A stretch of DNA of 64,000 nt, taken from contig JBHGNT010000001.1 in assembly GCA_043228905.1 (NCBI GenBank), positions 6,138,001 through 6,202,000 on the forward strand, read 5' to 3'. Shown here piece by piece: positions 22,801 through 62,524 of the stretch. The position numbers were made by a program, and so were the translations under genes. Position 1 is the stretch's first letter. Every line of letters begins with the position of its first letter. Origin of the DNA: Azolla caroliniana. Its lineage: Eukaryota; Plantae; Polypodiophyta. The notes under the pieces were generated by a model. That model was given only the letters and a program-made list of their open reading frames with translations. It was not told the origin of the DNA and did no database searches.

Positions 22801-23497
22801 CTTTACAAAGTGAACTCCTGTTTTTCACAGCCTAAATATTATTATATCTTAGTACTTTGCAAAGCCGTATTTTAACCAATAGTTTAGGATTACTCAAAGG
22901 CTACATTTTGTGACTTTCATCTTCTTTTGTTATTGTTTGGGCAGATATTTACATCACCTTGCAACCCCACATGTTGTTCATGGGGATGTAAAAGCCAGTA
23001 ATGTCTTGCTTGATTCCGAATTTTGTGCCCAAGTAGCTGACTTTGGGTTTACAAAGCTCATCCCTGAAGGTGCTTCACATGCAAAAGGTAGCCTTGGTTA
23101 TCTCGCTCCAGAGTACGATGCAATGTCGGAAAAAGCATCAGAGGGTTGTGATGTGTATAGCTTCGGCATATTATTATTGGAGCTCATAAGTGGGAGGAAG
23201 CCCATTGAAAACATTGGGCACGGCGTGAAGTGTAACATCATTGATTGGGCAACACCATTGTTGGAAGATGGAAAGGTTGAAGAGTTTGTAGATCCGAGAC
23301 TTGAAGGGAAGTATGATGAAGAGGAGGTGATACGTGTAGTCAAAGTGGCGACTATGTGTTTACAAAATTCCCCTGGAAAAAGACCAACAATGATTGAAGT
23401 GGTTAATCATTTGAAAAGAAAGACCAAAGATGGTGATACTAGACTTGCTGAGTATGGTACTCAAATTGGAGTTGATATGCATGATAATGTGAAGTAG
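19801..23497 (+). CDS. PTI1-like receptor-like cytoplasmic protein kinase (At3g15890 type). Exons 19801-19838, 22025-22169, 22473-22735, 22945-23497
   Basis: GT-AG exons splice in frame: [94 protein letters not shown]...[19 protein letters not shown]...DFG...GYLAPEY...DVYSFG. Confidence 0.92.
20350..20920. repeat. Old diverged tandem array, unit about 85-95 bp, in kinase intron
   Basis: The core ga(c/t)(c/t)agga(a/g)ccaaat.g.gctagg...atct(t)ca.tagaga recurs near 20450, 20627, 20720, 20803 and 20892. Confidence 0.6.
21240..21420. repeat. 90-bp near-perfect tandem duplication
   Basis: ggatatact..aattga.atcattggtacatatgaggcg.ttcaagggttttgtgtcccacatgccaaagtacatcataggtcttatctag is present twice. 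Confidence 0.9.
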
Positions 23498-25133: not shown

Positions 25134-25288
25134 TGGTCTCGTGACCACCCCAATCACCTTACTCAAAAACAGACAGAAACTCACACACACATAGACGGGC
25201 ATATTAACAAAGAAGCAGATGAAGCATTAAAGAAGGAGAAGATGATAACGAAGAGGAAGAGGTACTGAAGAAGAAAGAAGAAAAAGGC

Positions 25289-27217
25289 ATGGCATCTCAA
25301 AATGCTGGAGGAAAGTCGCTGCCACCCATATCGGGGCGGGGTACGCCGGCCCTGGATACTTGCACGCCAGTGACGGCGGAAGCCAGACCGCCGGCCATTA
25401 CCATAGGCAAAAGATCCCCGGCAACAACCGAAGATTTATCGCCGGCTCGGCCAAAATTAGGAGTTGAATCCCCTGGACCCAAGACCCACATTGTTGGCAC
25501 CGGCACCGGCACCAATGCTGGACGCCTTCCAGGGCCTGATTTTAATACAATGCACAAACCACCTGGTGATAAGATCAGAGGCGGCCCAGGAGATCAACCT
25601 GGGCCTGGCTCTTACGATCCCAAAGACGTGATTCGGAGCGGATGGCCCGCCGGCATCACGATGGGGGCCCCGAGGCACGGCGACAAACCTCCGGCAACAC
25701 CTGGGCCTGGGAATTACGATGTCCCCGATACTAGAAGCGAATCCCCGGCATTCTCCATGGGGAGGAAGAGCAGCGTTAGCCACCGGCGAAGCAGAGACAT
25801 CCCGGGCCCGGGCTCGTACTTCGTCACTCGGCATGGCAGCGGTACCGCCACGGATTCGATGCTTACGTTCAGCCAAGGATCGCCCATCGATACTGAGAAC
25901 CTGTCCGGGGTGTCTTCTTCATCGGTGAGCAGCCGTTTGCGGGAGTTGCCGGAGCATCGCCGCCGTCCCCGCTGGGACACCTCGCCCGGCCCGGCCTCTT
26001 ACAATGTGAATTCGCGCTTCACGTCTTCCACACCGCCGGCATTCACGTTCGGCTCGCACTTGCCTCACTCGATATTCGACGGTAAAGCCGCCTCGCTCAC
26101 CCCTGGCCCCGGCACCTACTCCCTCGACAGCTCGTTGGCTCCGTCCATGGCCGGCCGGTCCAGCCCGTCCTTCACGATCCAGGGACGCGATTCCACATGC
26201 GACACGATGATGTTACGGCAGAGTGCAGCCACTCCGGGGCCCGGCACATACGAGCAACGGAGCTACGCAGTCGAAGGCCCCGCATTGTCGCTAGGGAAGC
26301 GGTTACCGATGCCGCGCCAACCCTATATCCCCGGGCCCGGGGCCTACCACCAAGAAGGCAAACCGGCGGGCCCGTCGTTTAGCCTCTTCCGACGGAACAC
26401 GTTCTTCTCCCGCCCCGACCGCGGCACGCCTGGGCCCGGAAGCTACTACAATGCCGCCCTCTCCCGCCCGTCTTCTCCGGCATTTTCGATGAGCACTAAA
26501 TCGGCCCCTCCTGTCGCCGGGGCCAGGCGACAAGATATCGCGCCGGGGCCGGGGACTTACAACCTCCGGACTACCTTCGAAGGCCCCTATTACAGCCTCT
26601 TGTCCAGGACGGCGCCACCTAGCCGGAAATCGTTCGAAACACCTGGTCCCGGCCGCTACAACCTCGGCTCGACTGGACGGCCCGACTCTCCGGCTTTCAG
26701 CTTTGGTTGCAAAACACCCTCGGAAGTGAATGCGTCCCCTGGTCCAGGCCAATACGATACACAAAAGTTGATTGGGAGACCCTTAAGCTTCACCTTTGGC
26801 ATGAGGCCCCCTCAGTCTAAACGAATCATGGGGCCCGGGCCCGGCACTTACGAACCCATAAGCACCGTCTCCGGCCCCTCTCATTCGCTCCATGGGCGCT
26901 TTCGCACTAGCTACACGGCTACCGCGCCTTCCAAATATTTCCCCGGCCCCGGCACTTATAATATCAAGACGCGATTGCAAGGCCCCGCTTTCACACTGCC
27001 TTGTCGTTTGGACGGCCGTCGTGATGCTTGGCGATCCCAAACACCCGGGCCTGGTGCGTACGAGCTCCGTTCGGGTTGTGTTTCACACTCGCCGCCCAGA
27101 TTCAGCCTCGGACAACGCCTCGATCCCAAAGACCGGGAACGTCGTCCTGGCCCAGGGAGTTATAATTTACCCCTTCACTCTAGTGCGCCTGCTTTTTCCA
27201 TGCTCTCTCGTTTCTGA
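25289..27217 (+). CDS. Intronless SHIPPO-repeat (ODF3/STPG-like) PGPGxY protein, 642 aa; probable axonemal/sperm-flagellum microtubule-binding protein
   Basis: GC-rich uninterrupted ORF with 15 PGP(G/A)xY motifs, most followed by a PAFS/PSFT(M/F)G motif. Confidence 0.88.
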   Translation: MASQNAGGKSLPPISGRGTPALDTCTPVTAEARPPAITIGKRSPATTEDLSPARPKLGVESPGPKTHIVGTGTGTNAGRLPGPDFNTMHKPPGDKIRGGPGDQPGPGSYDPKDVIRSGWPAGITMGAPRHGDKPPATPGPGNYDVPDTRSESPAFSMGRKSSVSHRRSRDIPGPGSYFVTRHGSGTATDSMLTFSQGSPIDTENLSGVSSSSVSSRLRELPEHRRRPRWDTSPGPASYNVNSRFTSSTPPAFTFGSHLPHSIFDGKAASLTPGPGTYSLDSSLAPSMAGRSSPSFTIQGRDSTCDTMMLRQSAATPGPGTYEQRSYAVEGPALSLGKRLPMPRQPYIPGPGAYHQEGKPAGPSFSLFRRNTFFSRPDRGTPGPGSYYNAALSRPSSPAFSMSTKSAPPVAGARRQDIAPGPGTYNLRTTFEGPYYSLLSRTAPPSRKSFETPGPGRYNLGSTGRPDSPAFSFGCKTPSEVNASPGPGQYDTQKLIGRPLSFTFGMRPPQSKRIMGPGPGTYEPISTVSGPSHSLHGRFRTSYTATAPSKYFPGPGTYNIKTRLQGPAFTLPCRLDGRRDAWRSQTPGPGAYELRSGCVSHSPPRFSLGQRLDPKDRERRPGPGSYNLPLHSSAPAFSMLSRF

Positions 27218-29796: not shown

Positions 29797-30293
29797 TTGC
29801 AGATTTTGTTTGATCATGTTGAATAGTGATAGTTCATTTTATCTATTCAAATTTATATAGAAATCTTGCAACTTTTTCCAATTGAAGATCAATTAAAATG
29901 GATGAGATTTCCAAATATTAGTATAACTTTATTACCTTCATGAATTTGAGACATTTTTCTTAAATTTCTCCAACATATCTAAAATTGAGCATAATGTTTA
30001 CTCAAATAATCTTATGTATAATAAACAACTTGCAGATTTTGTTTGATCATGTTCAATAGTGAGAGTTTGTTTGATCATGTTGAATAGTATAGTTCATTTT
30101 ATCTATTCAAATTTATATAGAAATCTTCCAACTTTTTCCAATTGAAGATCAATTAAAATGGACGATATTTCCAAATATTAGTATAACTTTATTCCCTTCA
30201 TGAATTTGAGACATTTTCTTAAATTTCTCCAACATATGTAAAGTTGTGCACAATGTTTACTCAAATAATCTTATGTATAGTAAACAACTTGCC
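29797..30293. repeat. Tandem duplication, unit about 235-260 bp
   Basis: ttgcagattttgtttgatcatgtt...ctcaaataatcttatgtata.taaacaacttgc is present twice; the second copy has a small internal re-duplication. Confidence 0.9.
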
Positions 30294-30329
30294 CATATGT
30301 GACATGATTTGTATTGTATGTATAGGAAT

Positions 30330-33300
30330 TTGGAGGTAACGGTGAGATGGTTGATGTGGAAAGATGAAGCATACTTCTTGAGTTTTTGATAAGGGTGCGC
30401 GTTGCCTGCTCAAAGATGGGTAATTGGGACGAAGGTCAAGGAGATTGCTAAAGATGGGTACGAAAGAGATCAATCTCTTGGTAATGCTTTGAGAGACATG
30501 TACACAAAATGTGCCTCACTTATGCTATCACGGGTTGTATTGAGGATCTACCAAGTCAAGATGGAATATTTATGTATCCGTCCTTCAAAAGCAAGATGTA
30601 GTGGCATGCAATATTGTTGAGCGGCAAGTTCAACCGGATCTGGATTGGTATCCAAAAGGATGAGTCGGATCGGTGAGCTAGTGAGCTGGGGAGCCGGTTA
30701 GCTGGATCAAGCAGTAACCGGAAGCCAAGTAGCAGCTAGTCTACTAGGGATTTAATATCTTGTAGTTAGTGTCAGACGCTCGTGTGAGCATTGAAGTACA
30801 CCGTACTTCTGTCAGTCCAGATGGACTTGTATAAAAGTGTTCACTGAACACATACGATGTACAGATTGAGCAGTATTTTTTGAATTGTTTTTCTGTGTGC
30901 TCTCTCTCTGTTTCTGTCTCTCCCGCGTACTGTTAAGCTCTCCATTAAACTTGTTTTCTGCTTTCTGTTTTTCTATTGCTTCCACACGCTATTTGTTTCT
31001 ACATGGTATCAGAGCATGACGGTTGAAGACCTCTGCAACCGACATTCGCTTTCGCAAGACAAACCCTACAGGTTGTGAGAACAGAACAGTAGACAAAAAA
31101 AAATGGACAGAGGAATGGCAAGCTCGCTCTCGGTGGAGAAGCTCGACAGAACCAACTACGCATCTTGGTCTTACAAGATGCACCAGTACTTGCTTGGGCA
31201 TGGGTACTGGAGCTATGTCGACGGAGCTAACAACACAACACCTAATGCGACACACAAGGACTTCCTAGTGTGGGAACAAGCGACAAGCAGAGTGATGTAC
31301 TGCTTCGCGTCCAGTGTCGAAGACCAGCTGCCAAGCCATATCCGAGATGCCAAGATGCCAAAGGAAGCTTGGGGAAACCTGAAGAAGGTTTTCGCCGCAA
31401 GCACAACAGCCAGGAAGCTGCAACTCAGACAGGAGCTCAGCAATATCCGACAGAAAAATTTGTCTATGGCTGATTACATGACCCGAATCAAGGAAATTTG
31501 TGACTCACTCGCCTCCGTCAATGTAAATGTCGAGGAGGATGAGATGGTGCAAGTGTGCCTTGGTGGGCTAGCGTCCAGGTTCGGAGCTTTCCGAACGGCG
31601 GTCTGTACGAGGGAGAATATGCCGTCATTTTTCGACTTACAGTCGATGCTCCTTGTAGAGGAGAACCACGCTGGTGCGTCAACAAGTGCACCCACCGACA
31701 ACCGGATGCTGTACACAGAGGCGGATCGGCCCTGTGGGCGTGGTGGACGAAGCGGGTCGGCTCGCAATGGTAGCGGCCGGCAAGAGCAAGACCGACAACA
31801 CAGAGACCGTGCCAACAACAGTTCCTGAACCTCCACAACTAGGGGGAGTCAAGGTGGCGCCGGAGGCTGGCAAGACAAATCCGCCACGGAATGCTGGTAT
31901 CGGACAGATCGTCGACCAGGGAATGCAGGTGTGGTTTACACACCTTGGGTGCTTCATTGAAGAGGAGGGCCAGATTATTGCGCAAGGGCGTAGAGACGGG
32001 AGTACGTTCATCCTCGACACCAATGACGTCGGCACCGCTTTGTTCGCCAAAGGATAGAAGATTGAATCAGACATCGATCTCTAGCACAAGTGGATTGGCC
32101 ACATCAATTACTGGAGGCTTCAAGACCTACAAACAAAACAAGTTGTTTTTGGTTTGCCGAAGTTTAGTGGCCGGAAGGCCCAAGTATGTGAAGCCTGCTG
32201 ACTCGGGAAGCAACACCGGCTTCCATTCCCCACCGAATGAAACCGTAGCCATAACAAGCTCGACCTTATTCATTTGGATGTATGGGAACTGGCATAGAAC
32301 GTGAGTCTTGGCGGGAGTTGATACTTCGTCTCCTTCATCGACGACTATAGCCGGCACACATGGATCTACCTCATTGAGTGGAAGAGCGAAGTCTTCGATT
32401 GTTTCCGGAACCTCCAAAGCATGGTGGAACGGGAATCAGAGAGGAAGATCAAGTGCCTACGGTCAGATGGCGGAAAAGAATATTTTTCCGGCCAATTCAA
32501 CAGTTATCTGCAGTAAATAGGAATTCAGAGAGAGTTCAGCTGCAGATACACACCGGAGCAAAACGGTGAATGCTGGAAGAGAAGAGCATGCCCCATTTCT
32601 ACTGGGCGAAGGCGGTTCGGACAACCGTCTACATCCAAAACCAGATCGGTGACAAGGTGTCCGCGCATGAGCTGTATTTCGGGCTCAAGCCGAATTTGAG
32701 ACACCTTCGGATTTTTGGCAGCATAACATATGTGCATGTGCCGGATGAGAAGTGGAGGAAGCAGGATGCAAAATCGGAGAAGTGCATCCTCGTTGGCTAC
32801 TCACATGAGCAAAAGTGGTATAAGTGTTATAACCCCCGGACGAAGCAGGTCCGAGTTAGCCATGATGTTGAGTTTGATGAGACGACATCATGGTATGCCT
32901 TACCGGCTCCGACTTTCGACCCTGACCCGATATCGGAGGATGAGGCTAATGAGCCGGAACCGGTCTAGATAGAAGATGATGAATCCGGGACTCTAGAGGA
33001 GAGTCCGGAATCCTTTCGGTTGAGTGGGCCGAACGAGAGATTGGGTCAATCCGACCAGTCAGAAGAGGAACCAACGAGTAGTGAAGACTCTGCCGTGCTC
33101 TCCCCGCGCACGGAACCGAGGAGACAATTCACGCGCAAAGAGAAGGGGAAGAAGAAGATGCCGGATTATGAAACCGGTAATGATGAGTCGGATCAGAGCA
33201 GATGCGACTCTGTCAAGGAAAATGACGGCTCTTCGGCACCGAAGACCGAACAGGCCAAGAAGGGCATCAAACCGGGTTACGCCGGTCAACCTGCCAGAAG

Positions 33301-36110
33301 GAACCTGTTAAGCGGTACGGGTACAATGAGTACATGGCGCATCATTATGCGTACATGACCAAGGTGGCGGAAGTGCGTGAGCCGGAGAGCTACGCAGAAG
33401 CGGCAAGGGATGCAAATTGGCGTGCCGCTATGGAGGAAGAGATGCGGGCACTTGATGCCAACGATACATGAGACCTGGTTGACCCTCCCCGTCATTATAA
33501 ACCGATCGGATGCAAGTGGGTGTACAAGGTAAAGTACAACACTGACGGTTCAGTTAACCGGTACAAGGCCTGATTAGTGGCAAAGGGATACGCGTAGACC
33601 CACAGAATTGATTACGACGAGACCTTCGCTCCGGTAGAGAAGATGACGATGGTTCGTGTGGTGATGGCGGTTGTTGCGGCAAGGGAGTGGCATCTTCACT
33701 AGATGGACGTGAAGAATGCATTTCTTCAAGGCGATCTAGAAGAAGAGGTCTTTATGACCCAACCTCTCGGTTTTCAGTTAGGAGTGAACAAGTCGGCTGT
33801 ATGCCGGGTGAAGAAATCCCTGTATGGCTTGAAACAAGCCCCCGAGCTTGGAATGCGAAGATCATGCACCGGTTGCGTAAGATGGGGTTTGTGGCCTCCA
33901 AATCCGACTCTTCATTGTTCATCCGGCAAGGTCCGGATGGTCCAGTTTGCATCTTGTTGTATGTTGATGATCTGGTCATCACCAGACTCGGACTCGATGA
34001 AATCAACCAAGTCAAGTCCCAACTGTCGGACGCATTTGAGATGAAGGACCTGGGGGACCTTCACTATTTCCTTGGGATCGAGGTGATCCGAACCCCCGAC
34101 GGCATATTGCTCTCACAAGGACACTATGTGTTGAATATGCTGTACAAGTTCGGCATGACGGAATGCCGCTCTATTTCTACACCCTTGGACCGGAAACAGA
34201 AGCTCCGTCGCAACTCCGGACTGGCCTGCGATGAGAAACGGTTCCGACAAATTGTCGCAAGCCTTATATATTTGACCATCACCCGACCCGACATCAACTA
34301 TCCGGTCGTTGTGATTAGTCAATTCATGCATAAGCCGACCGTCGAGCATCTTCAATGCGCGCACCGAATACTGCGGTATGTGAATGACACGAAGGACCGA
34401 GGACTGTTATACCGGCGAGGTATGACCGAAGAGCTAGTCGGCTACACGAATGCCGATTGGGCCGGCGATGCATCAGATCATCGTTCCACTTCCGGCTATA
34501 TGTTTTCCCTTGGTAGTGCGGCTGTTACGTGGAGCAACAAAAAGCAGCCAACAGTGGCTCTGTTGAGCACTGAGGTTGAATACCGGGGCGCTACCATTGC
34601 CACCTGTGAAGCCATTTGGCTTCGGCGATTGCTGCAAGACCTGCAGATCGAGGCGTCGACCCCGATCCTGATCTACTGCAACAACATAAGCAGCATGCAA
34701 CTCGCCAAGAACCCCGTATTCCATGCTCACACAAAGCACATCGAAGTGCAGTACCACTTCGTGCATGTGAGCGTGTCCTGAGCGGTGAAGTCAAACTTCG
34801 GTATGTTCATACGGATCGGCAAATTGCCGACATCTTCACCAAACCGCTCGGATTGGACAAGTTGCAGCACTTCACCGAAATGCTTGGTGTTTAGCATCTC
34901 GACGTGCCACACTTGAGGGGGAGAATGGGCAAAGACACCACCGGAACGGGCAAAGGCAAAGAGACTGCCGATTGCGCCGGTGGGGGAAGAACCGACAAGG
35001 GGAGAGAAAAGAAGAAGAAAGGAGCCGAGTTGACAAAGGAAGTTGACACATCCAAACAAGTCGAAGCAAGCGGCAGCGGAGGCAGAGTCAAGAAGGATAG
35101 AGCCGACCGGAAGAAGAAGGCCAAGACCCGGACATGGTCCGATGTGGTGAAGGGCCTGGAACCAGAAGACGAATCGGGAGCAACCGATTCAGACAAGAGT
35201 TGGAACGAATCGGAGACAGTTGATTCGGTTCTATAGAAGGATTTGGAAGAACCGGATCAATTCAAGGCCAAGAGGACAAGAAGGCAGCAAAAGTCGACGC
35301 CAACACGAAGGAATCGGCGAATCGACAAGAGCCGAAGTCACAACAACGAGGCAGCTGAATTGGGCATGTTGAGCAGACAAGCCGACCAAGGGAGTCGAGA
35401 TGCACAGGAACAGAAGGGTCGCGGAAAACGGGACCGGACCAGACGAGGAGTGCGAGCGAGGCGGAGTGACGCCAGAAGGAGCCAAGTGAAAGGACCGGCT
35501 GCCATAGAGACTGACACTACGATCCGACCTTAGATTGAGCTTGAGAGGGAGTGTTGAGTGACAAGCTCAACCGGATCCGGATTGGCATCCAGAAGGATGA
35601 GCCGGATCGGTGAGCCGGTGGCCGGTGAGTTGGGGAGCCGGTTAGCTGGATCAAGCAGTAACCGGAAGCCAAGTAGCAGATAGTCTACTAGGGATTTAAT
35701 ATCTCGCAGTTAGTGTTAGACGCTCGTGTGAGCATTGAAGTATACCGTACTTCTGTCAGTCCGGATGGACTTGTATAAAAGTGTTCACTGAACACATACG
35801 ATGTACAGACTGAGCAATATTTTTTGAATTGTTTTTCTGTCCCTCCCACGTACTGTTAAGCTCTCCATTAAACCTATTTTCTGCTTTTTGTTTTTCTATT
35901 GTTTCCGCACGCTATTTGTTTATACAAATATACTTACAACAGGGTATATGGAACATGGACCTACTTTGTGGATATGTTAGTATGGTATGTTGGTATGGTT
36001 ATGTTGAAGATCTTCAGTACATTTTGAACCAGATGCAAACCGAGGGTGTATCCCCAAGTTCAGCCATCTTTGTCTGTAGCATGAAGAAGAGGGGTCCCAA
36101 AGGCCCCTAA
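30330..36110 (+). pseudogene. PLS-type PPR gene relic split by the Copia insertion (pieces about 30330-30614 and 35927-36110)
   Basis: EIAKDGYERDQSLGNALRDMYTKCASL on the left and W..GY..DLQYILNQMQTEGVSPSSAIFVCSMK on the right are PPR motif consensus fragments, with stops and frameshifts. Confidence 0.7.
30615..35926 (+). mobile_element. Ty1/Copia LTR retrotransposon, structurally complete but decayed
   Basis: LTRs 30615-31003 and 35552-35926 (TGTTGAG...TACA, moderately diverged), TSD AATAT, PBS TGGTATCAGAGC (31004-31015, tRNA-iMet), PPT ttgagagggag before the 3' LTR. Gag (31103-31828), integrase, RT (LYVDD) and RNase H fragments carry stops and frameshifts; the protease region appears deleted. 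Confidence 0.95.
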
Positions 36111-36119
36111 CTATAGAAA

Positions 36120-37078
36120 CATTGATGTTTTGATGAAACACTAATAGTTTTTAGATGATGGAGCTTCATGGAATCCATGAATTTGCAACTATTGTTGGTT
36201 ATCTAAACCAAATTTTTGCAGAGGGAGAGCGATTGCATTTCATTCATTGGGACTTCCAAAAGTTTGCAAAAAGAAAGTCACAAAGTTTTAAGAATGATTG
36301 GGAGAGTTGCTAGTCAAGCACTCAATCTAACTGGGTATTAGTATACCGGTAGACCTTCAGTTGTGAAGACTAGCACTCATCATTCTAGTGTGCATTTAAA
36401 CTCAAATGTTCTTACAAACAAAGATGTTTGGATGCCAAAAGATTTGATGCCCGTGAAAGATTTGAGAGAATCTTTGACTGACTTAAGTGAATTGGCAAAG
36501 TTAACAAAGATTGAACCAAAGAGCACTAAACAGATTGAATTTGTACAAAAGGAGGATCAAAATTTATGGCAAGGATAGAAAGGAACCAAGATATCACAAT
36601 GGGTTTTTGAGAAAAAACTGTATTGACAGCTTGGATTGGAAAAATGTTGCTCAATATGCTTATGGCTTGGCTACCTTAGGTCATCAGTTATTCTCCTTGG
36701 GCCTGTCAGATATTCCCAAGGTTGATCCACACAACATTATAGCAGATGCTCTAATGGATATGTATCAAAATATGGGAGATGCATCGGCATTACAATATGG
36801 TGGATCTTCTGCTCATAATATTGTTTTTCTTGAGAGGTATAGAAGGGAAACCCTCACTTTGGGGGTTGGATTCTAATGATTCATTACACATTGGGAGTAA
36901 TGGTGATGATTCACATGCATATGATGCTTTGTATAAGAAGTTTCTTTCAAGTGTGGACTTAACTAAGGACTTCTTTTTAGCTGCACATACCCAATTATGC
37001 AAAGCTTACAAAGGAATATGTTTGTTGATGAGGCCGAGAGGATGCCATATGAAAACATGTTTGTTTGGAATTATTTTG
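36120..37078 (+). pseudogene. Intronless, rearranged SAC-domain phosphoinositide phosphatase (SAC1/FIG4-like) pseudogene
   Basis: LHFIHWDFQKFAK; GFLRKNCIDSLDWKNVAQYAYGLATLG (degenerate RxNCxDCLDRTN catalytic motif); MYQNMGDASALQYGGSSAHN; EGKPSLWGLDS; then YKKFLSSVDLTKDFF.S.TYPIMQSLQRN...PYENMFVWN. Confidence 0.9.
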
Positions 37079-37943
37079 TATGTTGTAGTTGATATGCCTT
37101 TTTATAAAACTAATGGAAGGATATTTTGTTTCGAAAAAAAATAAAACTTACCCATATGTGTGTTGACTTTAAAGACAATATTGGCATCAAGTGTTCACAT
37201 ACCATGAGAGTCAAGACACGTACAATTAAGTAATAAATACGCTAATACTAATTGTAAATGCATGCATGAAGGATATGCAAATAATTCATTCACATTTTGA
37301 AGCCCTCATTTTGTGCATTAGATCTATATAAAAATGTGACGGATTATTACTACATACATGGTATATACTTATTTTACATAAATAAATGATCGATTTGATG
37401 GCATGCATCCCAACGTAAAAAAAATCATCAAGGTAATGCTTTCATTACCACCTCAGGGATTAAAAGTTTTATTTGCACTAATAATTCTTGCTCTTGATGT
37501 GCATGCACCCATATTGAAAAGATATTAGTTCTACTTTTTTCTGGAAATTAGGTTGTGTCTGGAAAAAATGGAAAAAATGGAAAAAAAATAAAATAAATAT
37601 GAGCACACCAAGGCCCTTGATTGCGCAAAATTAAGTTAAAATAAGAAAAATGGCATCGGCCTTAGTTAAGTCTTTATGCATATACAAGGATTTGGTCTAA
37701 TTTTCGACCAAGTAAGAAACAAAGGTATTATCTTGGTAATTACAAATTGTTATTCCAATTACAGTACAAGCCATTATAAATATGCTAGGAAGATAAACTA
37801 GCATAATGCAACATGGCTCTCACTCTGAAACAATATGTGTGTGCTAATATTAGCTTGTAGTTAAAAAGAGAGAGATTGTTTTGCATGTGAACAAAGGAAT
37901 AAGCCTAACATGTCTAATTTATGCCATACGATGGGAACTACCT

Positions 37944-38368: not shown

Positions 38369-39570
38369 AAAGCAAAGACACCATTGCTATTTAACTATTT
38401 ACATGCTACCCCAAGGTGGGGATGTGGTGGTTATTTATTTACATTAAACATATAAGAGTGCTTTCAATGTCCGTATGCAGTGATTGAACCTTTGAATATG
38501 GACTCCCTTGACTGAAATATAGAGGCCCTTTCATCAACGTTTGATACAACACTAGCAATCCTTTCCCTTGAAAACATTAAAAAACACGCTTAAATAATAT
38601 ATTAACAAGTTTCGCCTCAATTTCCCATTAATGGTTTCGAAGGAGAGCGTTGAATTGTGAAAATGTCAATGTATTAAATATTGGAGCTTCGACCATATTC
38701 AACATTTAATGTGTTTATACCTTCGTTCTTGACCCAAAGAATAATATTATACTAGTGTAGAGTAGTAATAAAATTGTGTATTAGATGTGAAACTGAGAAT
38801 CACATGCAAAGTATATGAATTTAGCATCATTCAATTAATCAATCCCATTTCAGAAGAAAATGTTCTAAATGATTCATTAAATTATAAAAGACTTGTCAAA
38901 ACTTGCGTCCCATTAAAATTAACCGTTGGGAGAACTCTAAAATACCATTGAGTTCTCCTTTATATTTCCTAAATGCTCCTTGTACTGTAGACCTATTTTT
39001 CTTCCCTTCTATCCACCATGATCTCGAAGTCGCACATGGAAGATCAAGGAAAGAAAAAACATACAAAACACAAAAGGGAAGGCAACCTTCATGCCTTTTA
39101 CATGATCTTTTTTTCCCTTACTTACATTTCCTTACTTTGTTATTCCTTGGGTTTGCATGTAGGTCCCATCCCTACTTTAGGTTGTCTCCCTTCGTCCATC
39201 ATAGTTCATTGCACTTTGACCTTAAGGCATTCACCTCTTATTTAGACCCATCATTTGGTCTTACTATTCTACTTTTATGCGGAACATCACATGACTTTTT
39301 GAGACAACTTTCATTGAATGCACATTGAAGTGTCCCACTAGTAATTTCAACTATTGTCGAAACAAAGGAACATTCCATGGGAACTCCTTTGGCACAAATG
39401 CTAAGACTTTGGTCCTCTTTGGAAATGGATTCACAAATATGGAGGTTGATTGATTATTTGAAAAAAGAGAAGTTTTTGCTTCATTAAATAAATATTATAT
39501 TATTATTATTATTATTATTATTCCAAAAAAAACTCCTTCCATTAGTTATAAAATTTTACAAATGAGACGA

Positions 39571-42500
39571 TTATGTACAAATCCCTAAAGGGACACGATA
39601 GTTCCATCTTATGTGGATGCCCACTGACTCAAGAAAGGGAGAGGATGACCATTGTTGGATGAAGGCTATGCGTTGTCTTTCAACTCCCTCGGAGCCGCCC
39701 TTAAGGCCATCATATTGGCTCTTCAGAGTGGCTACAATTTCACTCCATATCTCTTGCAGTAACCTTGTTAGATGGGCGGTTTGGTTGGAGAAGACTCGCC
39801 TACATCGTTGTTTCCATAGAATCCAAAGGGTGGGGCTGACCAATTCCAACACCTCTTGAGATTTGTCATTAAGAGGAATAGAGTGGACATTGCCGATGGA
39901 GGAGAAAAGGACCTCTTGTGCTTTTATCACCAAAGTCATCCCCTCCTCTTAATGCTCGTATCGGCCAATTGCAGCTTGCCATGATAGCCAACATATTTCC
40001 CCACTTGATTGAACCTTGCACCTGGCATAATTGCAACAAGCGGCCAACCCCCCGCCATATTTGATGGGACGTTGGGCAGTCCCACAGAGCGTGTCGTATG
40101 GATTCTACGGCATGTGGGCACTCTACACAATTAGGAGAGCTAAGGTTCCCACATTGCCATGCTCCCACCGGTAGGGACTTATGTATTAACAGCCATTGGA
40201 AAGTGGTAATTCGCCTCACGTGTTGTTGCTTCCAGATTTTCTGCCAAAACTTGGTGATTATTGCGGAGGGAACTTGAAATGTGTGCCAGACCTTCGCAAC
40301 ACCCGGTTCTTGGGCGGCTTGAGCAGTTAGAATGTGGCGACCCAATCTAGTTGTGAATTGGAAGAAAGGGATGGGTTTGCTTCCTTGCCCCACGTAGGGA
40401 TCACGCCATGTCCATTGCAAAGGGTCCCAACTGACCTTACGTAGCCATGTGTTTTCATGAGTACATATATGCCAATCGGGTTGTACTTTGATCGGATTAG
40501 GATCTACAATCCATTTATGACTAGTGTGCGCAAGTACTCAAATGGCGTTATTCTGTGTTGGTGTCTCAGTGTCTCGCAATTCAGGGCCTTCGAGTCTGTT
40601 TGGTGGTCCTCTACCTCTCGGAATCAGAGAACCCTCCTCCTCATGGCCTATCCATTTCTCCATTGTCATCCTTTGAGTAGTAGATTCCCTAATCAGTAGA
40701 GCGTTAATGATTTCCGATCTCATAGTCCATCCACCCCTGATTCCATGGAGTATGTTCGCCTGATCTTGTAGTGGCATTGACATAAACCGTCGCCAACATT
40801 CTATACTTTTTCCTGGACCTTCTGCAATGTATCCCCATGACAACCCCTTACGTGATCCCAGTAGTTGATTAGATTCATCCTTGAGACATGGGTTCCATAG
40901 GATACGTTGACTGAGCCAGGCAGGTTCGGATCTCGGTTGATCACACTTGAGCCCTCGACGAATGTCACACCATGCCTTCCACATGGATGCACTGAATCTA
41001 TCCTCCAAATGGCGGGAGAAACTAGGTTTGAGATCCATGTTTAGAATCCATCCCGTTTGGGGGGCCCAATTGACCCCTTTTCGTGGCCTAAAGTAAGCGA
41101 AACGTAACCTCAGTGGCATTTTCCAACAATCATTTCCTGGTTGGAGTCCTCGCACCACAAATTTGGCAAGTAAGGCTTTCGATTGTGAAAGGGGATCAAT
41201 AAGATCCAATCCCCCTCTCGATTTAGGCACTGTGAGTATAGGCCACGCCACCTTGGCGCGAGCTACATGGTCTTCCTTACCAAACCAAATGTAGTTGGGG
41301 ACCAGTCGTTGAATCTGATAGACTGTACCATGTTGTTGCGAGGAGTACCTGATTTGCCACTATGATGCGACCCGCTAGCGACAATTTTTTCGAGCTCCAA
41401 TGTATCAACTTTTGTCGAATGGAAAGGATAATGGGTGCAATCATAGTCTCCGGCGGTATGTTGAAACCAATTTGGAAGCCCAAATATTTGGTGCTCTCAC
41501 CTTGATTGATCCATTTGAAAGCAGGGTGTGGGTGCCACGCCGTATGTGTTTCCTGAGAGAGCCATATTGCACAGGATTTGTGCCAATTGATCATGGCGTT
41601 GGATCTCTTGCAAAATAAAGCTAGCCCACTTTCTAGCTTTTGGAGGTTTTCCAGGTTGCCTTGCAGGTAGACTGTTGTGTCATCTGCAAATTCTATATCC
41701 AGGATGCTTTGGTAAGAATGAGGTATGGGAAGACCACGTAGGTTGAGATGTTGCGAGTTGAGAAAGCAAGAGAGTGCTTTGGCGTATAATAGAAATAAGG
41801 ATGGAGCTAGTGGGCATCCCTGCCGTACAAAGCGAGATATTCGGAAAAAGGGGCCCCTTTCACCTACCAGTGAAACGCAACTACTGCCATTCCTATAAAA
41901 TCCTACAATGCCTTTGATCCATGTCTCTTGAAAGCTAAGTTTCCTCATCACACTTTCTAGAAAGTTCCAGCATACCCTGTCATATGCTTTCTCAAAATCT
42001 AGTAGCACCACTGCTACCTTCTTGTTGGTCTACTTGGCAAGGGTTATTGCTTCCCAAAATGAGAAGAGGTTGTCTAGGATGCTCTGATTTCTAACGAAAC
42101 CTGTCTGGGACGGATGAATGAGTTGAGGGAGAAGTGGAGTTAAACGGTGTGCCACGATTTTTGCAAGCAACTTATAGACAATATTGAGAAGAGTAATGGG
42201 CCGCCACTTGTGAATGTCGTTGGCATTCCCACCACTTTTAGGAATGAGATGTATCATCCCTTGTCCAAATTCCTCCGGCATGCTTCTAGAGGTGATGATC
42301 TCCTCATATGCCTGGATGAGGTCTTCTTTAATAGTGCCCCAAAGGCATGTGAAAAAATGCGGGGTGAGTCCGTCGATTCCGGGGCAACTCTCGGCATCTA
42401 AATCAGTGAGGGCCTCCCATATCTCAATGATTGATAGGGGACGCACAATCCAGGTATTCATTTCCGGTGTGACTTTCTCAGGTATGCTTTGGAGGATAAT

Positions 42501-43817
42501 ATCATCGCTTATGTCTTCCCCTGTAGCTATAATGTCTTCGGTAAGTAGGCGGCTATAATACCTTGTGGCAATATTCCTCATTTCGTCGCCATCCTCAGTG
42601 GTCGTTCCATCCTCTCGGTTGAGGTTGCGCATCACAGTTCTAGCGTGCGTCGGGCCTTTGGAGCGGAAGAATTCCTTTGTGGTTTTGTCCCCTACTCGAA
42701 TCCATTGCGCCATGCTGCCATGAAACTCCATGTCATATATTTCCTTTTCTGCCATGCTAAGTTCCTGTTTGGTTGTGGCAACTTGTCCTGCGATCCAAAT
42801 ACAGGACGGGTATCTCTGTTGGAGTCGTTGTAAGGCTATTAGTCCCCGTTTTGTCCTCTATCGCTTCTCCTGAGCATCCGTGCATCTGGTCTTGACAATC
42901 TCATGTAGGAGAGTAGAGGCTCTTGTTAATTTAGCTAAAAGTTTGTCTGATGCTGATGAGCCATTGACGGGTAATGAAAATTGGTTGGATAGTTGGTCCT
43001 TCACATCTATAAGTGTGTAAATAGTGTGTGGGATGCGAGTCTGGAATGGGCCCCATTTTTGGTGCAATTGAAAATGACCAGCTACCGGGTAATGGTCAGA
43101 GAAAGTCGTGCATGGAATTATGCGACACCACACTCCCTTCGCTTCTAGAGCCTCCCCCACATAAATGCGGTCAATGCGAGATAGGGTGGGTCCACTATTC
43201 TGCTCGTCTGATCAGGAGAATAGGAGAGAATCCCTTTTCCGTTGGAAGTTGGCAAAATGCCAGATGTCTCGCAGGTTAAGGTGGACACATAGCTTCTCCC
43301 ATTGTTTACGTTCCCTTCCTTGTAGAACTGTGGGGTTGTTGTTGGAGCTATCGTGAATGGATTCAATCATATTAAAATCCCCTCCAATGCACCACTCTTC
43401 CGCACCCACTACTTGTAGGCGGATGCGGTCCCAGAATGTTGCTCTTTTTGTTCTGTTATTTGGAGCATAAACATTCATGAAGTTCCATCGTTGCCCTCGG
43501 ATGGCCAACGTGCAAAAATGTGCCCTACTAGGTATAAGTGATTCTTGGTGTATTAAGCCTTGGGCTAGATGTTCTCGAATCAAAGTGCAAATACCACCAT
43601 GATTTCCATCCTCCCAAATTGTTCGCCATGATCCTGGTAGAAGGTCTCCAACTTCCTTTAACTGTGTGCTATCGAGGTGGTGTTCCTACAACATGATGAT
43701 GCTAGCACCACTCCCTAGTAAATATTCTTCAAGATCCCTTCTCAGTTTCCATCTATTTTGTTGGTCTAGTCTACATCTAAGTCCTTGCACGTTCCATGTT
43801 ATAATCTTCATACTCAT
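39571..43817 (-). pseudogene. LINE ORF2 (endonuclease-RT-zf-RVT), broken by stops and frameshifts
   Basis: Collinear ORF fragments 43686-43817, 43212-43583, 42858-43160, 42030-42755, 41277-42011, 40538-41251, 39869-40420, 39571-39939. Confidence 0.9.
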
Positions 43818-46123
43818 GGAATGGGGTGGGAGGTTGCCAGTTGTGCCTGGTGGTTTGTATAGCAGGTCGTGAGTGGGGAGCACTCACCATTTAGACATCC
43901 AATCATTTCCAGGGATGAAATAGTGGTCCACATCCATGAGTGGAGTTTGTGGGCTATCCTGTGAGCTTCAATCGCCCCTTCATGCTTCTCATAGAAATAG
44001 ACAAAGCTTGGAGTTAGTTGGGTGTCTATGATAGTCCACAGGTGGATGTGGCAAAGATGGGGGTCCTCTTCATCCATGGTGCACCAGAATTCAATGTTAT
44101 GCCAATGTTGCTTTAGTTCATTCATGAGCTCTTCATCTCTTATTTGTGCTACAAAGCACGCTGCTTGGCTACATAACATATATTTAATCTTGGATTTCAA
44201 CCAATCTTCCTAAGTTGGAAGCAAGAGTGGAAAGGAGATTGAGGTCGTCGGAACTCCGTTCTTGTGCACCGCTGATACATGTACCCTTATTTTTTCCACT
44301 GTCTTGAGCCCTATACCTAGCCATTTCAAGGCGTTTTGTGGGTGTGGTTCAAGGTCTTGGCTAGAGGAAGCACACTCATTTGTGTCTGGGGCGACTATGA
44401 TTTGAGGTGTGACATTCACACTTCTGCCTTGGTTTGTTGCTTCTGCATTGGGTGTCGTTCCACTCAAGCTCCTTATTAGGGTCTTTACATGACTTATTCG
44501 TCTGTGTTTCCCTGTTTTGTAAGCTTTAACGAGAACTTTCTCTTGTGTGCTTGGTGTCACCTTAGGTCGTTCCTTGGGGCTTAAGAAAGAACTAGGGGAA
44601 TGCTCATCTGTGGGGGGGAGCTCTTGTAGTAGATCAAAGCAATTGGGATAGGCGATGGAGGATTTTTTGCCGATGATGTTTTTCGAAGGACATGGGTTTT
44701 TTCCACCACTCGCCATTCCATCACAGCCTTGTCGGTTGTGGTGGGGGAGGCTTATGATGTCTTATGGTAGCCTAACCTTCCAGAGTCTCCTTTGTAGGAT
44801 CTTTAATACGTCTTGTGGGGCAATTCTTTTTTAAATGACCAAGTTTTTTGCATGCAAAACATTGCCCCGGTGCGCCAATCACTTCTATGCGTTCTTCAAT
44901 TCACATTCCGTTTTTCCAGGGAATGAGGATCTTGGAGGGAAGTTTATTGATGTCCTGCACCATGAGGCGGATAGAGGGAGGGCCTAGGTGCTTCTTTAGT
45001 CTGTCTGCTAGCGTTACTTCCTCATCCAACATCATCCCAAAGGAGTTGCCATTAGTAAGAAGTAACATGTTGTATTCTAAGGATTGTCCAGGAAACAACA
45101 TTGTTACCTTTTTCATGGAGTCATCCTGTTGTGCGGCTTTCTCTGGGTTAAAACCATGTGTCCATTTACGCATGAACAACCATGTATTTCGGAACTGGCA
45201 GGGGAAAGTGCTATGAGGTTCGTTGCAAACTCCTTGTCTTCTAGTATGATTTGATAGAAGCCTTTACCAAGCGGTTGGACTTCTTTTATACCACGTAGTT
45301 GTGAATGAAATTGAGCTTGCAACATATCCCACAACAACCCTCTGTTTGGTCGTGATCCCATCACTCGGCATATGACCACTATTCGCTCAAGGCACTCTAT
45401 CTCTTTCTCAAGTAGAAGCATCTCTTCGTTGTTGAAAATAATCTCAACAAGACCCCCGCTATCAGAGATGTTTTTTTCGTTATCGATCGAGGGGCCTGTT
45501 GGTGCAATGTGTTCGACAGTGGCGATGTTCGAAGGTGCCATTAGTGATAAAATCAGACTGCGTCTCTTTCTCTCTTATCCTTTTTTTTTGGGGGGGGGAG
45601 GTTTACGGGAGTGTGTCCCACTCCTTGAAGTGTGTGTGTGGGGGGGGTGTCTGTTACTCTCTTAGCCGGACAAGGCCTAACACAAGGTGTCACGGAGACA
45701 CTTCACCAAAGGGTGATTACGGCATAGGATTAAGATTCAACGATTACACCGACTTACGTAGGTTACACTATTAGATTGCTTTGGTTAATTACACGCGTAA
45801 GATATAACAGTGATTACAGAACGGAAATCAAGACAGAAGTATAAACAACATAAGCTCTACTAATTATCCGCTGTCATTACAATAGGGTCCGGGCCTTTAA
45901 ATAGGTTTCCGGCCCGTAGTACAAAACGGTGCCTCTCGCACCTATTCGGGATCCGTCCGGATCTGGAACGGCATACCGTTTCCAGTCCGTCCGTCCACAC
46001 TATGCTTATCTACAACCATATCTAATTAATTCCTTCACTCCGTAATTTGGACTCCTTGCCGGCCGGTAACACATGGCACGCCCGTGGGACAGTACCTTGT
46101 ACGTCGAACCCTTCTCGGCCCCT

Positions 46124-49036
46124 TCATTGTTCACCCAAATTGTCCAAATTACTTTGTTCAAGAATTTCCACTTGTTCTTCCGGTTGTGGTTGTTGCGGCT
46201 GTGCTTGCTGCTGCTGCTGTGGTTGCGGTTGGGACTGAGGTTGCGCCGGCTGCTCTGCTTGCTGCTGCTGCTCCGTTTGCTTCGCTGACTCCGGCTGCTC
46301 CGTTTGTCTCTCTGGCTCCGGCATCTCCGTTTGACTGCTTCCGGTTCGGTCTCCTTCCAGTAACGGTTCCTCATCACTGAGGTTGACCGTAACTGGTTCT
46401 CGTTCTTTCTCTCCCCGGAGCCGGGACCTCTCGTAGCTTTCAAACTGGATCTGCGCCTCCAGCCTGTCGTCGTCCAGCTGAGCTACAAGTTGCCGGACTT
46501 GCTCTAGTTGGTCCTCTGCCAAGGCTTGAAAGTCTTCGGCAAGCTCATCCCTTATGCCGGTGAAGTCTTCGGAAGTCAGCATATAGCAATCATCTCCCTC
46601 CTTCCGCCGGTTCTCTACGTCAGCCCGGAGCAATTGGAGTTCCGCCGCGTTCGTGGCCCACTTGGTCCACCATTTGACGGAACCGTTGTCAATCAAGCTC
46701 TTGGTCTGGTTCAACCAGGCCCGCATTATATCTTGGATGCGACTTGCTCCCATTTGAGCTCTGCTTTCCACCACTTGTCGCTCCTCCTTCAACTGCTTGA
46801 TGAGGTTTGCCGTATCCTCCGCCTGCTCTCTGTAGCGCGTCAGCTGCCCTTGATATGTCGTTTGCAGCCTCTGCAGTACCTCTGCCGCTCTTTCTTTTTC
46901 CGCCTGCTGTTGCCTGAGGAGATCTGTCCGAACCTTCTCCGCCTCTTCCAACCGTCTTCTGTTTTCCGCTTGTTCCTTAGCGAATGCGGTTGCGGTCCGA
47001 TCAACTGCTTGCCGGAGCTCATCCGTCCGTTCCTTGTGCTCCGTTTGCAACCGTTTATACTCCCGGTGCAATTGCTCAAATTCCTCCGTTTTTTGTTTGA
47101 GCTTGCCGTTGATCTGGCGATGGTTCCGGTCCTCCCGGTCCTTTACCTGCCGGAGTTCCTCTTTCAGGCTCTCTACTTCTGTTTCGGCGTTCCTCCGGAG
47201 CCTCTCCTTCTCTTGCAGCATTTTCTCCTTCTCCTCCTTGAGCCGGTCGTATGCTTGGTGGCCTTTCCGTAAGCTCTCCTCGGCCCGGCGTAGATTCTCA
47301 GCAGTCTTTTTGAGTTCTGCCTCCGCTGCCGTCTTCAATTCTCTTTCGCGGCTCCTCAGCGCTTCTTGGGCAGCTAGCTCATCCTTTAAATCCGCAAGCT
47401 CTTGGGCTTGTGCCGCATTTCTCTCCGGAACGGTTTCCGTTGCCGGGGTCTGATTGCTATGTACAGGGTGATTTGACACTTTATTCTGTACATTGCCCGG
47501 AGTCACCGGTGCTTGGACTTGTGTTTCCCTTGTGACCCTGTCCAAGTCTTGTTCAAGGCTCCGGATTCTGGACCGGGCCGTCTCTAGATCTACGGTTGTG
47601 ACGAGCAACCGTTCCTGGTGCGCTCTCTCTTCCGCCTCTATATACTCGACCACTCCGGCGATTTGCTCGCCTACCCACCGTAGCCACATGCTACTGGTGC
47701 CCTGTTGCTGTACTGGTCGGGTCGGCTCATTCACCGTGGAATTGTCTGGCCTGATTGCCTGCATATGCCGTTCTGGTTCTACTCCTTGGCCGCCGTGTGC
47801 TCTGGCTGGGCTCGCCGGCTGTTGAGTTCCGGTTCTCGCCGTTTCCGGAGCCGTTGGACTGACTTCTTCTATAGAAGTCGACAAGACCGGTTCCCTACGC
47901 ACCGGTTCCGGTTCTTCCCTTGTGGTTTGCTCAGGTTGAGTTGGGGGCGTTTCTGCCTCTCGCGGGTACGACCGCTCCCCTCCTGTCTCGGCGGTCCTAC
48001 TTCTCGACCGTCGTTGGAGGTGCTCTTCTGGCTCCTCCATTTCCTCTTCCTGTGTCACGACATGTTTCTGTGCCGTCAAGGGTTCCGGTTCCTTCTGTCC
48101 TGGTCTCCGTAAGGTTATCTTGACGGGTCGGACCGGTGACACCTCCTCCGGTTCTGGGACCCGTTTCTTCCCTTTCGTCGCCTTCGACGCCAGCAGCTGC
48201 TGTCGTTTGGACGCCGGCTTCGAGGTGCTTCCTTTCGATACTCTTGGCCGCTTCTTTGGCTGGACGGTCTCGACCGGCGGCACGAGCAATGTTATCCATT
48301 GAGCTACGGCGTGCCACAGCTTCCGGCCCTCCTTGCCGTCCTTCCCTCGTACCATGTCGATTGCCATGCACAACCCGTCTGCAATCAACACCGGCCAGTC
48401 CACCTTGACCCCTTCATAGGTGGCTATGATCATCCCTGCCCGATTTTTTGGCATGACAGGGGGTCGGGGGTACACGTGACCGTACTCATGGAGCACTCGA
48501 GCTATCTCCCTGAATAGCGGATCTTCGCCGCCCTGCGTCCGATAGCCTTTGCCGGCAACAGAGTACTCACCGAAATATCGGGTGAGTTGCTCCGAGGTTG
48601 GGTTATCGATCTGAAAGATTCCTCCCTCCGGAAGGCCTGTTAGCGCGCGGATCGCTTCCTTGGTGATGACCTCTGTGGCGAGCTCCTTGATGACCCGGTC
48701 GGCTTCTCTGTGCGGCGGTGCCTCCATGATGGCCAAGAACCCCTCCAGTCCGTTTTGCCTGAACCATTTCCTGGCCGCTTCCGACAGTGTTTGTGGTTCC
48801 ATGTCTGCTTCAAGGTCGAGAGACGATGGCGAGGTAGAGTGGTGATGAGAGTGAGAGCGAGAGAGAGAGCGTTCTGAGCGCGGGGGTTCTCTGCGTGCAG
48901 GTTCGCGTTTGCTCAGCTTCCACTGTCTTGGTGCTTCTGTGCTTCTTGGCTCGCGAAATGAAAAGGTCTCCATGCGTTCTGTTTCTTCTTTGTGCGTTTT
49001 GGCGCCTTTTTCGAGCATGCACACGTCGTGTACCAA
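46124..49036 (-). CDS. Additional sense ORF of the Gypsy element (970 codons; first ATG at 49018): globular N-domain, basic NLS-like segment, long coiled coil, Q/E-rich tail
   Basis: Uninterrupted 2.9-kb ORF between the pol stop and the 3' LTR; KKRPR/KGKKR motifs; E/R/K/Q-rich helical region; no transmembrane stretch seen. Confidence 0.9.
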   Translation of the reverse strand: MVHDVCMLEKGAKTHKEETERMETFSFREPRSTEAPRQWKLSKREPARREPPRSERSLSRSHSHHHSTSPSSLDLEADMEPQTLSEAARKWFRQNGLEGFLAIMEAPPHREADRVIKELATEVITKEAIRALTGLPEGGIFQIDNPTSEQLTRYFGEYSVAGKGYRTQGGEDPLFREIARVLHEYGHVYPRPPVMPKNRAGMIIATYEGVKVDWPVLIADGLCMAIDMVRGKDGKEGRKLWHAVAQWITLLVPPVETVQPKKRPRVSKGSTSKPASKRQQLLASKATKGKKRVPEPEEVSPVRPVKITLRRPGQKEPEPLTAQKHVVTQEEEMEEPEEHLQRRSRSRTAETGGERSYPREAETPPTQPEQTTREEPEPVRREPVLSTSIEEVSPTAPETARTGTQQPASPARAHGGQGVEPERHMQAIRPDNSTVNEPTRPVQQQGTSSMWLRWVGEQIAGVVEYIEAEERAHQERLLVTTVDLETARSRIRSLEQDLDRVTRETQVQAPVTPGNVQNKVSNHPVHSNQTPATETVPERNAAQAQELADLKDELAAQEALRSRERELKTAAEAELKKTAENLRRAEESLRKGHQAYDRLKEEKEKMLQEKERLRRNAETEVESLKEELRQVKDREDRNHRQINGKLKQKTEEFEQLHREYKRLQTEHKERTDELRQAVDRTATAFAKEQAENRRRLEEAEKVRTDLLRQQQAEKERAAEVLQRLQTTYQGQLTRYREQAEDTANLIKQLKEERQVVESRAQMGASRIQDIMRAWLNQTKSLIDNGSVKWWTKWATNAAELQLLRADVENRRKEGDDCYMLTSEDFTGIRDELAEDFQALAEDQLEQVRQLVAQLDDDRLEAQIQFESYERSRLRGEKEREPVTVNLSDEEPLLEGDRTGSSQTEMPEPERQTEQPESAKQTEQQQQAEQPAQPQSQPQPQQQQQAQPQQPQPEEQVEILEQSNLDNLGEQ

Positions 49037-49100
49037 TTTAGTATTAAGTAGCGTGGCGTCTCTTAAATGCCCACTACGTACCTTTTCGCGGTGTGTGACC

Positions 49101-54869: not shown

Positions 54870-54969
54870 GCCGTCTTTGCCGTTCAGCGATGCGTCGAGC
54901 TCGGTCTGTAACCAAGTCGTGCGTTGGTCTAGTCATCCATTACCGTCGTTCGCTGCGAGAAAGCAGGAA

Positions 54970-54981
54970 TCGTGGTCGCCA
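54970..54981 (-). promoter_or_regulatory. Primer-binding site of the Gypsy element, probably tRNA-Arg
   Basis: Minus strand reads TGGCGACCACGA 6 nt after the 5' LTR. This would pair with a tRNA 3' end ...UCGUGGUCG-CCA, recalled as tRNA-Arg(UCG)-like. Confidence 0.65.
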
Positions 54982-62469: not shown

Positions 62470-62524
62470 GTATGTGTCTGGATTTGAAGCTCTATCTTTG
62501 CATCGCTCTTAGCATCAGAATCGG

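Follow-up and report, generated by a model that had tools for sequence, protein, structure and literature searches.

A PPR-derived, non-coding and non-autonomous retroelement, present as a decayed copy in the window (i.e. the whole stretch of 64,000 nucleotides of Azolla caroliniana DNA analysed here), carries as its cargo spliced exons 8-12 of a SAC/FIG4-type phosphoinositide phosphatase gene joined to exon 4 of the same gene, and this cargo was probably copied once from a circular RNA formed by back-splicing of exons 4-12. Copying of a circular RNA is made likely by exons that lack introns and depart from their normal order precisely at splice sites, an arrangement repeated in dozens of copies of the element. 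The window copy of the carrier spans 30302-37146, is flanked by a 16-nt target-site duplication (TSD) and was later split by a copia element; its parts, and those of its surroundings, are arranged as follows:

30286-30301, plus strand: left TSD of the carrier, 16 nt, seen in the sequence and identical to the right copy at 15 of 16 positions
30302-30614, plus strand: 5′ part of the carrier, with a remnant of the ~155-nt tandem monomer and PPR-like sequence (PPR likeness judged by eye)
30615-35926, plus strand: later Ty1/copia LTR retrotransposon inserted in the carrier (copia gag, RVT_2), with LTRs at 30615-31003 and 35552-35926 and TSD AATAT
35932-36174, plus strand: PPR-derived segment of the carrier, matching the PPR gene L069
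36175-36273, plus strand: last 99 nt of SAC exon 8, with the 5′ switch point in mid-exon; 89/99 identical to the parent
36274-36406, plus strand: SAC exon 9, intron 8 being precisely absent; 121/133 identical to the parent
36407-36822, plus strand: SAC exon 10 (catalytic motif region), intron 9 being precisely absent; 381/415 identical
36823-36841, plus strand: first 19 nt of SAC exon 11, an internal GT donor being joined to an internal AG acceptor of exon 12
36842-36930, plus strand: SAC exon 12, starting at nt 25 and complete to the last base; 78/89 identical to the parent
36930-36931, plus strand: non-colinear junction of back-splice type, exon 12 donor to exon 4 acceptor, phase-matched
36931-37072, plus strand: SAC exon 4, starting precisely at its first base and broken off in mid-exon at the tail, over a short partial homology; 138/142 identical
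37073-37133, plus strand: 3′ tail of the family, with a 14-nt core (37108-37121) that recurs unchanged at the 3′ end of an L1-type LINE of the same genome
37134-37146, plus strand: A-rich end of the carrier, seen in the sequence
37145-37160, plus strand: right TSD of the carrier, seen in the sequence
39500-45600 (5′ limit approximate), minus strand: broken LINE next to the element but outside it, with RT and zf-RVT matches and, as judged by eye, endonuclease-like motifs

The parent gene (G000:C5:7193127-~7209740, 16 exons annotated) is the only intron-bearing match of more than 90% identity, besides a collinear copy with 99.3-99.8% identity on the small contig C346, which is likely a haplotig of the parent locus. 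Its exons 1-12 translate without a stop and are matched by RNA contigs with GT..AG joints, i.e. by linear splicing, while exons 13-16, which tblastx with paralogues had missed, were located via fern homologues; for exon 10, the top-ranking named homologues with full coverage belong to Adiantum and Ceratopteris. Three fern homologue proteins (P0002, P0005 and P0017) have exon 12 joined straight to exon 15, with exons 13-14 skipped, which suggests that this form is a conserved alternative isoform of the SAC gene in ferns.

The cargo had been recognized in the initial annotation as a permuted, intronless SAC pseudogene starting at 36120; its actual start is at 36175, 36120-36174 being PPR-derived. 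The peptides then named (FIHWDF, NCID, QYGGSSAHN, EGKPSLWGLDS) are all present in the translation of the window, and YKKFLSSVDLTKDFF does follow in frame past the junction, but FVWN, which had been read as its continuation, lies in another frame after a 1-nt deletion; the decayed peptides are not recognized by Pfam. Comparison with the exons of the parent bears out both the permuted order and the position of the junction at 36930/36931, the 36930 side coinciding with a downstream donor (exon 12) and the 36931 side with an upstream acceptor (exon 4). Parent exon 12 ends with GATGCTTG/gtaaga (the slash marks the boundary) and exon 4 opens with tttacag/GTATAAG, so the downstream piece, starting G-TAT-AAG, does begin at an exon start, and the junction is phase-matched. 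The window has a private G>T change at the last base of exon 12; the unmutated GATGCTTG/GTATAAG is found at 10 of the 12 sister loci examined, the other two giving no match. The absence of introns also holds, parental intron sequence being kept in none of the SAC joins of the window. A mid-exon junction, microhomology or retained introns had been named as observations that would speak against a circular RNA; what is found is a microhomology of 3-4 nt at a junction that lies at exon boundaries, with the introns gone. As to the picture of a lone pseudogene with no convincing poly(A) tail, the SAC retrocopy is real, but it is the cargo of a multi-copy LINE-type retroelement with a TSD and an A-rich tail, the latter being found at 37134-37146 as part of the carrier. 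The proposal of back-splicing itself is likely to be correct, being supported by the exact donor/acceptor junction, the absence of introns and the long, inverted-repeat introns that flank the exons concerned.

Introns 8, 9 and 10 are missing between boundaries which, according to RNA contigs, are GT..AG joints in the expressed parent, and no pieces of parental introns are present inside the copies at 35 copy loci; the only two matches lie outside the elements, and both are to a dispersed repeat. In exons 11-12, the gap spans from an internal G/GTAAGT to an internal CAG/G and, owing to these ends, is likely a splice itself. Extra pieces of ~200 nt in L020, L021 and L123 and in L027 were considered as introns or as exon 11 and rejected as later insertions; in the former three (G000:C17:6.40-6.55 Mb) the exon 11/12 join is occupied by such an element of ~200 nt, bounded by terminal inverted repeats, and the local cluster was duplicated at the DNA level after its insertion. 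Similarly, an exon 8-to-exon 10 shortcut in one subfamily was rejected as a case of re-splicing, as it sits in an A-rich short homology and not at GT-AG.

Exons 4-12 are flanked by the two longest introns of the parent, namely intron 3 (3,240 nt) and intron 12 (6,509 nt), which form the only matching pair at E<1e-3 in an all-versus-all comparison of 12 introns and 5-kb flanks. They share an inverted match with 502/744 identical positions (67%, 243 bits), along with two shorter inverted matches; among 58 placements of the same geometry over 130 kb, one reaches 243 bits and three reach 60 bits, all three overlapping the intron 3/12 pair. Base-pairing between flanking introns is described as an established cis driver of back-splicing, uncommon or rare in plants, in the accessible part of a 2022 review (PMC9860190), and the layout of introns 3 and 12, both long and bearing an inverted repeat, would favour back-splicing, although the inverted repeats (67% alike) may postdate the capture. 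The exon 4-12 circle (parent G000:C5:7197360-7201935) is a prediction from genomic sequence. Its exons add up to 1,506 nt, are phase-symmetric and show no stop when read round twice; being a multiple of three with no in-frame stop going round, the circle might in principle support rolling-circle translation. Skipping from exon 3 to exon 13 of the parent would likewise be in frame. The exon 12-to-4 joint is absent among the matches listed for six runs on the parent (X1, X2, X8, X14, X15 and X16, one of which is recorded as rRNA-depleted), all consisting of assembled contigs, which drop rare forms.

When 36100-37090 was used as a query against the 523-Mb assembly, at least 62 matches were obtained, mostly ~90% identical (40 of 60 candidates were scored), so the window piece belongs to a dispersed family. 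For the junction 18-mer, 40 matches (28 exact) were counted versus 3 for the control, and the seven that were fetched later comprise five family members and two chance matches; the junction is carried at about 38 loci, with five of the 40 matches lying on small contigs, possibly haplotigs. In a set of 34 copies, identity has a median of 90.4% with respect to the parent and of 90.5% for pairs of copies, 36/890 columns are fixed against the parent, and common internal deletions define subfamilies (one copy of less than 250 nt was omitted from the tree). From these patterns we infer that all junction copies stem from one capture and that secondary master copies then gave rise to the amplified family. 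Private changes are spread evenly over codon positions (340/346/308), with G>A and C>T being the commonest, and such decay without codon bias gives no indication of a protein function; the copies look functionless. All dispersed SAC pieces found fall within exons 4-12, only exons 4, 5 and 8-12 being seen (for exons 1 and 16, presence was checked in the fetched loci). SAC exons were found at none of 40 further tail-bearing loci, and no linear retrocopy with exons 2-3 or 13-15 was found genome-wide.

States of the carrier before and after the capture appear to survive. The PPR piece that adjoins the SAC cargo derives from L069 (G000:C17:13482037), which holds an intact PPR/E-motif reading frame of 965 residues; 35986-36086 and 36112-36174 of the window match its positions 1501-1602 and 1797-1859 with 89% identity. 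L144 and L143, the latter with an internal duplication, run through positions 1455-2309 of this PPR donor without SAC, and L145 spans positions 2087-2309; all three end in a related LINE-like tail and would represent the pre-capture state of the carrier. The SAC-bearing copies, instead, leave the PPR donor at 1859 and enter exon 8 in mid-exon, while the 5′-truncated L093 and L149 contain the 3′ part of exon 4, 20 nt of exon 5, PPR donor sequence that resumes at 2127, and a tail identical in kind to that of the window copy. The simplest account would be the replacement of donor positions 1860-2126 (~270 nt) by one SAC arc of 1,128 nt, running through exons 8-12 and 4 into exon 5 and making up 75% of the circle, with the window subfamily later losing everything from mid-exon 4 to the tail. 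As no single copy spans both the exon 12-to-4 junction and the exon 5/PPR join, it is only inferred that they result from one event. L066, L067 and L070-L072 were considered as the empty ancestor and rejected, since 8 nt of exon 4 are kept in them and they are, therefore, deletion derivatives. With regard to age, run X8 (organism E, probably DNA), in which intron 4 differs at 94/1,234 letters, contains single contigs that show both sides of the permuted junction as loose ends of 16 and 10 letters, and three contigs with the exon 4/tail join; on these grounds the family likely predates the split from organism E. The same run, compared with L109:8513-8824, also has exon 10 joined to the whole of exon 11, with indels, and exon 11 to exon 12; these contigs could stem from a copy older than the internal splice of exons 11/12, from a retrocopy of separate origin or from RNA.

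In the carrier family, tandem monomers of ~155 nt and pieces of PPR genes make up a mosaic body, and the copies have a common 3′ tail, an A-rich end and variable 5′ truncation; the 5′ part seen at 30302-30614 of the window recurs in the sister copies L015, L021, L027, L066, L067 and L070-L072. TSDs of variable length, those of the window and of L093 having been seen by eye, are present at 13 of 36 loci versus 1 of 166 shifted controls, with A as the first base in 12 of these 13; the search was anchored at the boundaries (38 loci were given, two of them without the tail) and copies interrupted by insertions are missed by it. The tail motif has 83 matches versus none for the control. Over the ~37 nt that precede the A-run, the tail resembles the 3′ terminus of a LINE family with scores of 40-49, as compared with shuffle maxima of 30-33, and the broken LINE at ~39500-45600 (minus strand) of the window is a member of this candidate partner family with the same 3′ end as the carrier. 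With these ~37 shared terminal bases, the LINE family is a candidate partner, whose reverse transcriptase would have mobilized the carrier in trans. The shared end is visible in the window at 37073-37146 and at 39500-39560. No tRNA was detected in eight loci with long copies or in the window, and no Rfam match (ribozymes included) was obtained in five loci, a decayed head being easily missed by such searches; inspection of the ends of the copies revealed no terminal inverted repeats. This PPR-mosaic non-coding family, with at least 83 tail matches, tandem 5′ monomers and an end of ~37 nt shared with a LINE, may represent a SINE-like family of mRNA origin, so far undescribed, that picks up pieces of cellular transcripts. 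The two LTRs of the copia element that interrupts the window copy differ at 26 of 368 columns.

The events that led to the cargo can be pictured as follows. Introns 3 and 12 would pair via their inverted repeat, and exons 4-12 would be back-spliced into a circle of 1,506 nt. The carrier would be mobilized by the LINE family through target-primed reverse transcription, as its A-rich end, TSDs, 5′ truncations and LINE-shared 3′ end suggest, and, in one such reverse transcription, the enzyme would jump onto the circle in exon 5, copy exon 4 in the backward direction, cross the junction, continue as far as exon 8 (1,128/1,506 nt) and then jump back to the PPR donor. The sister elements in which SAC replaces ~270 nt of the PPR segment fit such a double template switch. 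The chimera would then be re-copied to dozens of sites, with secondary master copies as the source. That a LINE-tailed mRNA-mosaic element trapped a poly(A)-less circle in this way and amplified it, leaving a dated fossil of the back-splicing of fern SAC exons 4-12 before the sister-species split, is proposed with moderate confidence.

Among the observations that speak against the circular RNA are the 3-4-nt microhomology at the junction, in a family that often switches templates, and the direct repeats of introns 3 and 12. The latter (direct matches of 51 nt, 86%, and of 25 nt) would be usable for recombination leading to a partial tandem duplication of exons 4-12, now lost, and forward splicing or trans-splicing of its linear transcript would give the identical exact junction in an mRNA then captured by the carrier. 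The parent locus may well have changed, the capture being old (copies ~90% identical to the parent). However, such an origin requires an extra, vanished allele and is unlikely: the present assembly holds no tandem duplicate of exons 4-12, none of exons 1-12 occurs twice in the 130 kb that surround the parent, and the genome-wide search for exons 2-3, 4 (3′ part), 5-8, 11 and 13-15 yielded no further copy with introns beyond C346 and distant paralogues (exons 2-3, 11 and 13-15 match only the parent on C5 and the 99%-identical C346; exons 5-8 match only these two and distant paralogues). Furthermore, the inverted matches of introns 3 and 12 are far stronger than the direct ones.

Microhomology, on the other hand, would be used if the reverse transcriptase made a third template switch, by chance, on a linear or partly spliced SAC RNA, leaving it where exon 4 starts and resuming where exon 12 ends, with no circle. 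It is present in every linear template, G/GTA being shared with intron 12 and with exon 15 and G/GT with exon 13; many switches and deletions of the family are at short homologies; and the isoform of the fern homologues brings exon 12 next to exon 15, whose start shares GTA. Since intron 12 and exon 15 begin with GTA and exon 13 with GT, like exon 4, the expectation restricted to microhomology is the one that matters: exact donor-to-acceptor joins are 105 of the 2,808,352 backward joins in the spliced mRNA (null ~4e-5), but still only 28 of the 52,507 with at least 3 nt of microhomology (null ~5e-4), the positions of exons 14-16 being approximate in both figures. The remaining family joins examined (PPR/exon 8, exon 5/PPR, exon 4/tail and several internal deletions) are, moreover, all mid-exon, and a chance switch leaves the choice of the long inverted-repeat intron pair unexplained, unless nascent RNA held by that very pairing was the template; it is considered quite improbable. 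Scrambling at the DNA level, by a Pack-MULE, a Helitron or rearrangement of an ordinary linear retrocopy, is the least credible origin, with hardly any probability left to it. Many DNA elements capture gene pieces in plants, but the precise absence of the introns, the A-rich ends, the TSDs of variable length, the common 3′ end with variable 5′ ends, and the lack of visible terminal inverted repeats and of any linear retrocopy with exons 2-3 or 13-15 have already largely refuted such a process.

Copying from a back-spliced circle, as favoured here, has its closest parallel in the circRNA-derived pseudogenes of mouse and human, most notably the 33 circRFWD2 copies (Dong et al. 2016, PMC4897178). 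According to the accessible part of that paper, these also have a non-colinear splice-site junction, no introns, only the exons of the circle and tens of copies that go back to one circle; of the features of its high-confidence class, the exact junction, the absence of introns, the confinement to the exons of the circle and the lack of a rearrangement of the parent in the present assembly are found here at the level of sequence. A matching circRNA in RNA data is a further feature of that class, and the exon 12-to-4 joint is absent among the contig matches listed for the six runs. The cases of Dong et al. started from circles detected by RNA-seq, with LTR-rich flanks reported and the mechanism called unknown in the text available, unlike the present one, which is known from genomic copies, in a plant host, with a non-LTR, LINE-tailed and TSD-flanked carrier and with a single capture and its pre-capture sisters visible. 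The full-text literature search, the coverage of which is without most subscription journals, yielded no circRNA-derived pseudogene of plants, in agreement with the initial annotation, according to which such copies are described for mammals and are not known to be reported in plants; the word ‘pseudogene’ does not occur in the accessible text of the plant circRNA review (PMC9860190).

As for the carrier, tripartite chimeric retropseudogenes produced by double template jumps during LINE reverse transcription are reported in the accessible text on Magnaporthe (PMC2104539), as are LINE-1/RNA chimeras in that of a preprint (bioRxiv 10.1101/2025.02.02.635956). Pieces of different transcripts are fused there, too, in the same orientation within one TSD-flanked insertion; unlike in those cases, as far as described, the captured RNA is likely a circle here, the enzyme likely returned to its first template and the chimera founded a subfamily. 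‘Circular’ and ‘circRNA’ have no occurrences in the accessible text of the LINE-1/RNA chimera study. Like Sadhu elements (PMC2848041) and SINEs with a LINE 3′ end (PMC3747384), as they are portrayed in the parts of these papers that are available, the carrier is non-coding, with an A-rich end, TSDs and truncated derivatives, and it has its 3′ terminus in common with a LINE, as do the stringent-type SINEs of the latter source. It differs from both in its mosaic of PPR mRNA pieces, its tandem 5′ monomers, the lack of a tRNA or Rfam match and the spliced host exons that it carries, and no tRNA-, 5S- or 7SL-derived Pol III head, the classical criterion of tRNA-derived SINEs, was recognized in it. 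Plant retrozymes, in the accessible account (PMC11722881), also leave genomic copies of a reverse-transcribed circular RNA by means of a borrowed enzyme. They are, however, LTR elements self-circularized by hammerhead ribozymes, unlike the carrier, which has no LTRs of its own (those within its window copy belong to the later copia insertion) and no ribozyme match, and the circle would here be a spliceosomal product of a host gene.

How poly(A)-less circles enter the genome was left open by Dong et al. in the accessible part of their text (PMC4897178). The surviving states of the carrier before and after the capture point to template switching in the course of LINE-type reverse transcription, with the carrier giving the primer end and the tail. 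If the circle is real, circRNA-derived pseudogenes are extended to plants, together with a plant case of back-splicing driven by inverted repeats in long introns, rare in plants in the words available from the review (PMC9860190). The prediction is that of an exon 4-12 circle of 1,506 nt, in frame and with no stop going round. The number of copies is uninformative on the abundance of the circle, since many copies derive from one capture, and the ~38 genomic copies of the junction could mimic circRNA calls in this species.

Beyond the carrier, the window includes, at 45652-55407, a young gypsy-type LTR element with identical LTRs of 420 nt and a gag-pol frame of 1,943 codons, along with a further frame of 1,014 codons (46124-49168, minus strand) that has no Pfam match. 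An Oberon-type PHD finger exon lies at 8259-9008 (minus strand) and a protein kinase exon at 22883-23497 (plus strand). Short tandem duplications of 110-260 nt, 92-100% identical, are seen at 29801-30292, 12305-12748, 5409-5659 and 62516-62748. Finally, a frame of 664 codons at 25223-27217 contains numerous sperm-tail PG-rich (SHIPPO) repeats, in keeping with a plant whose sperm are flagellated.
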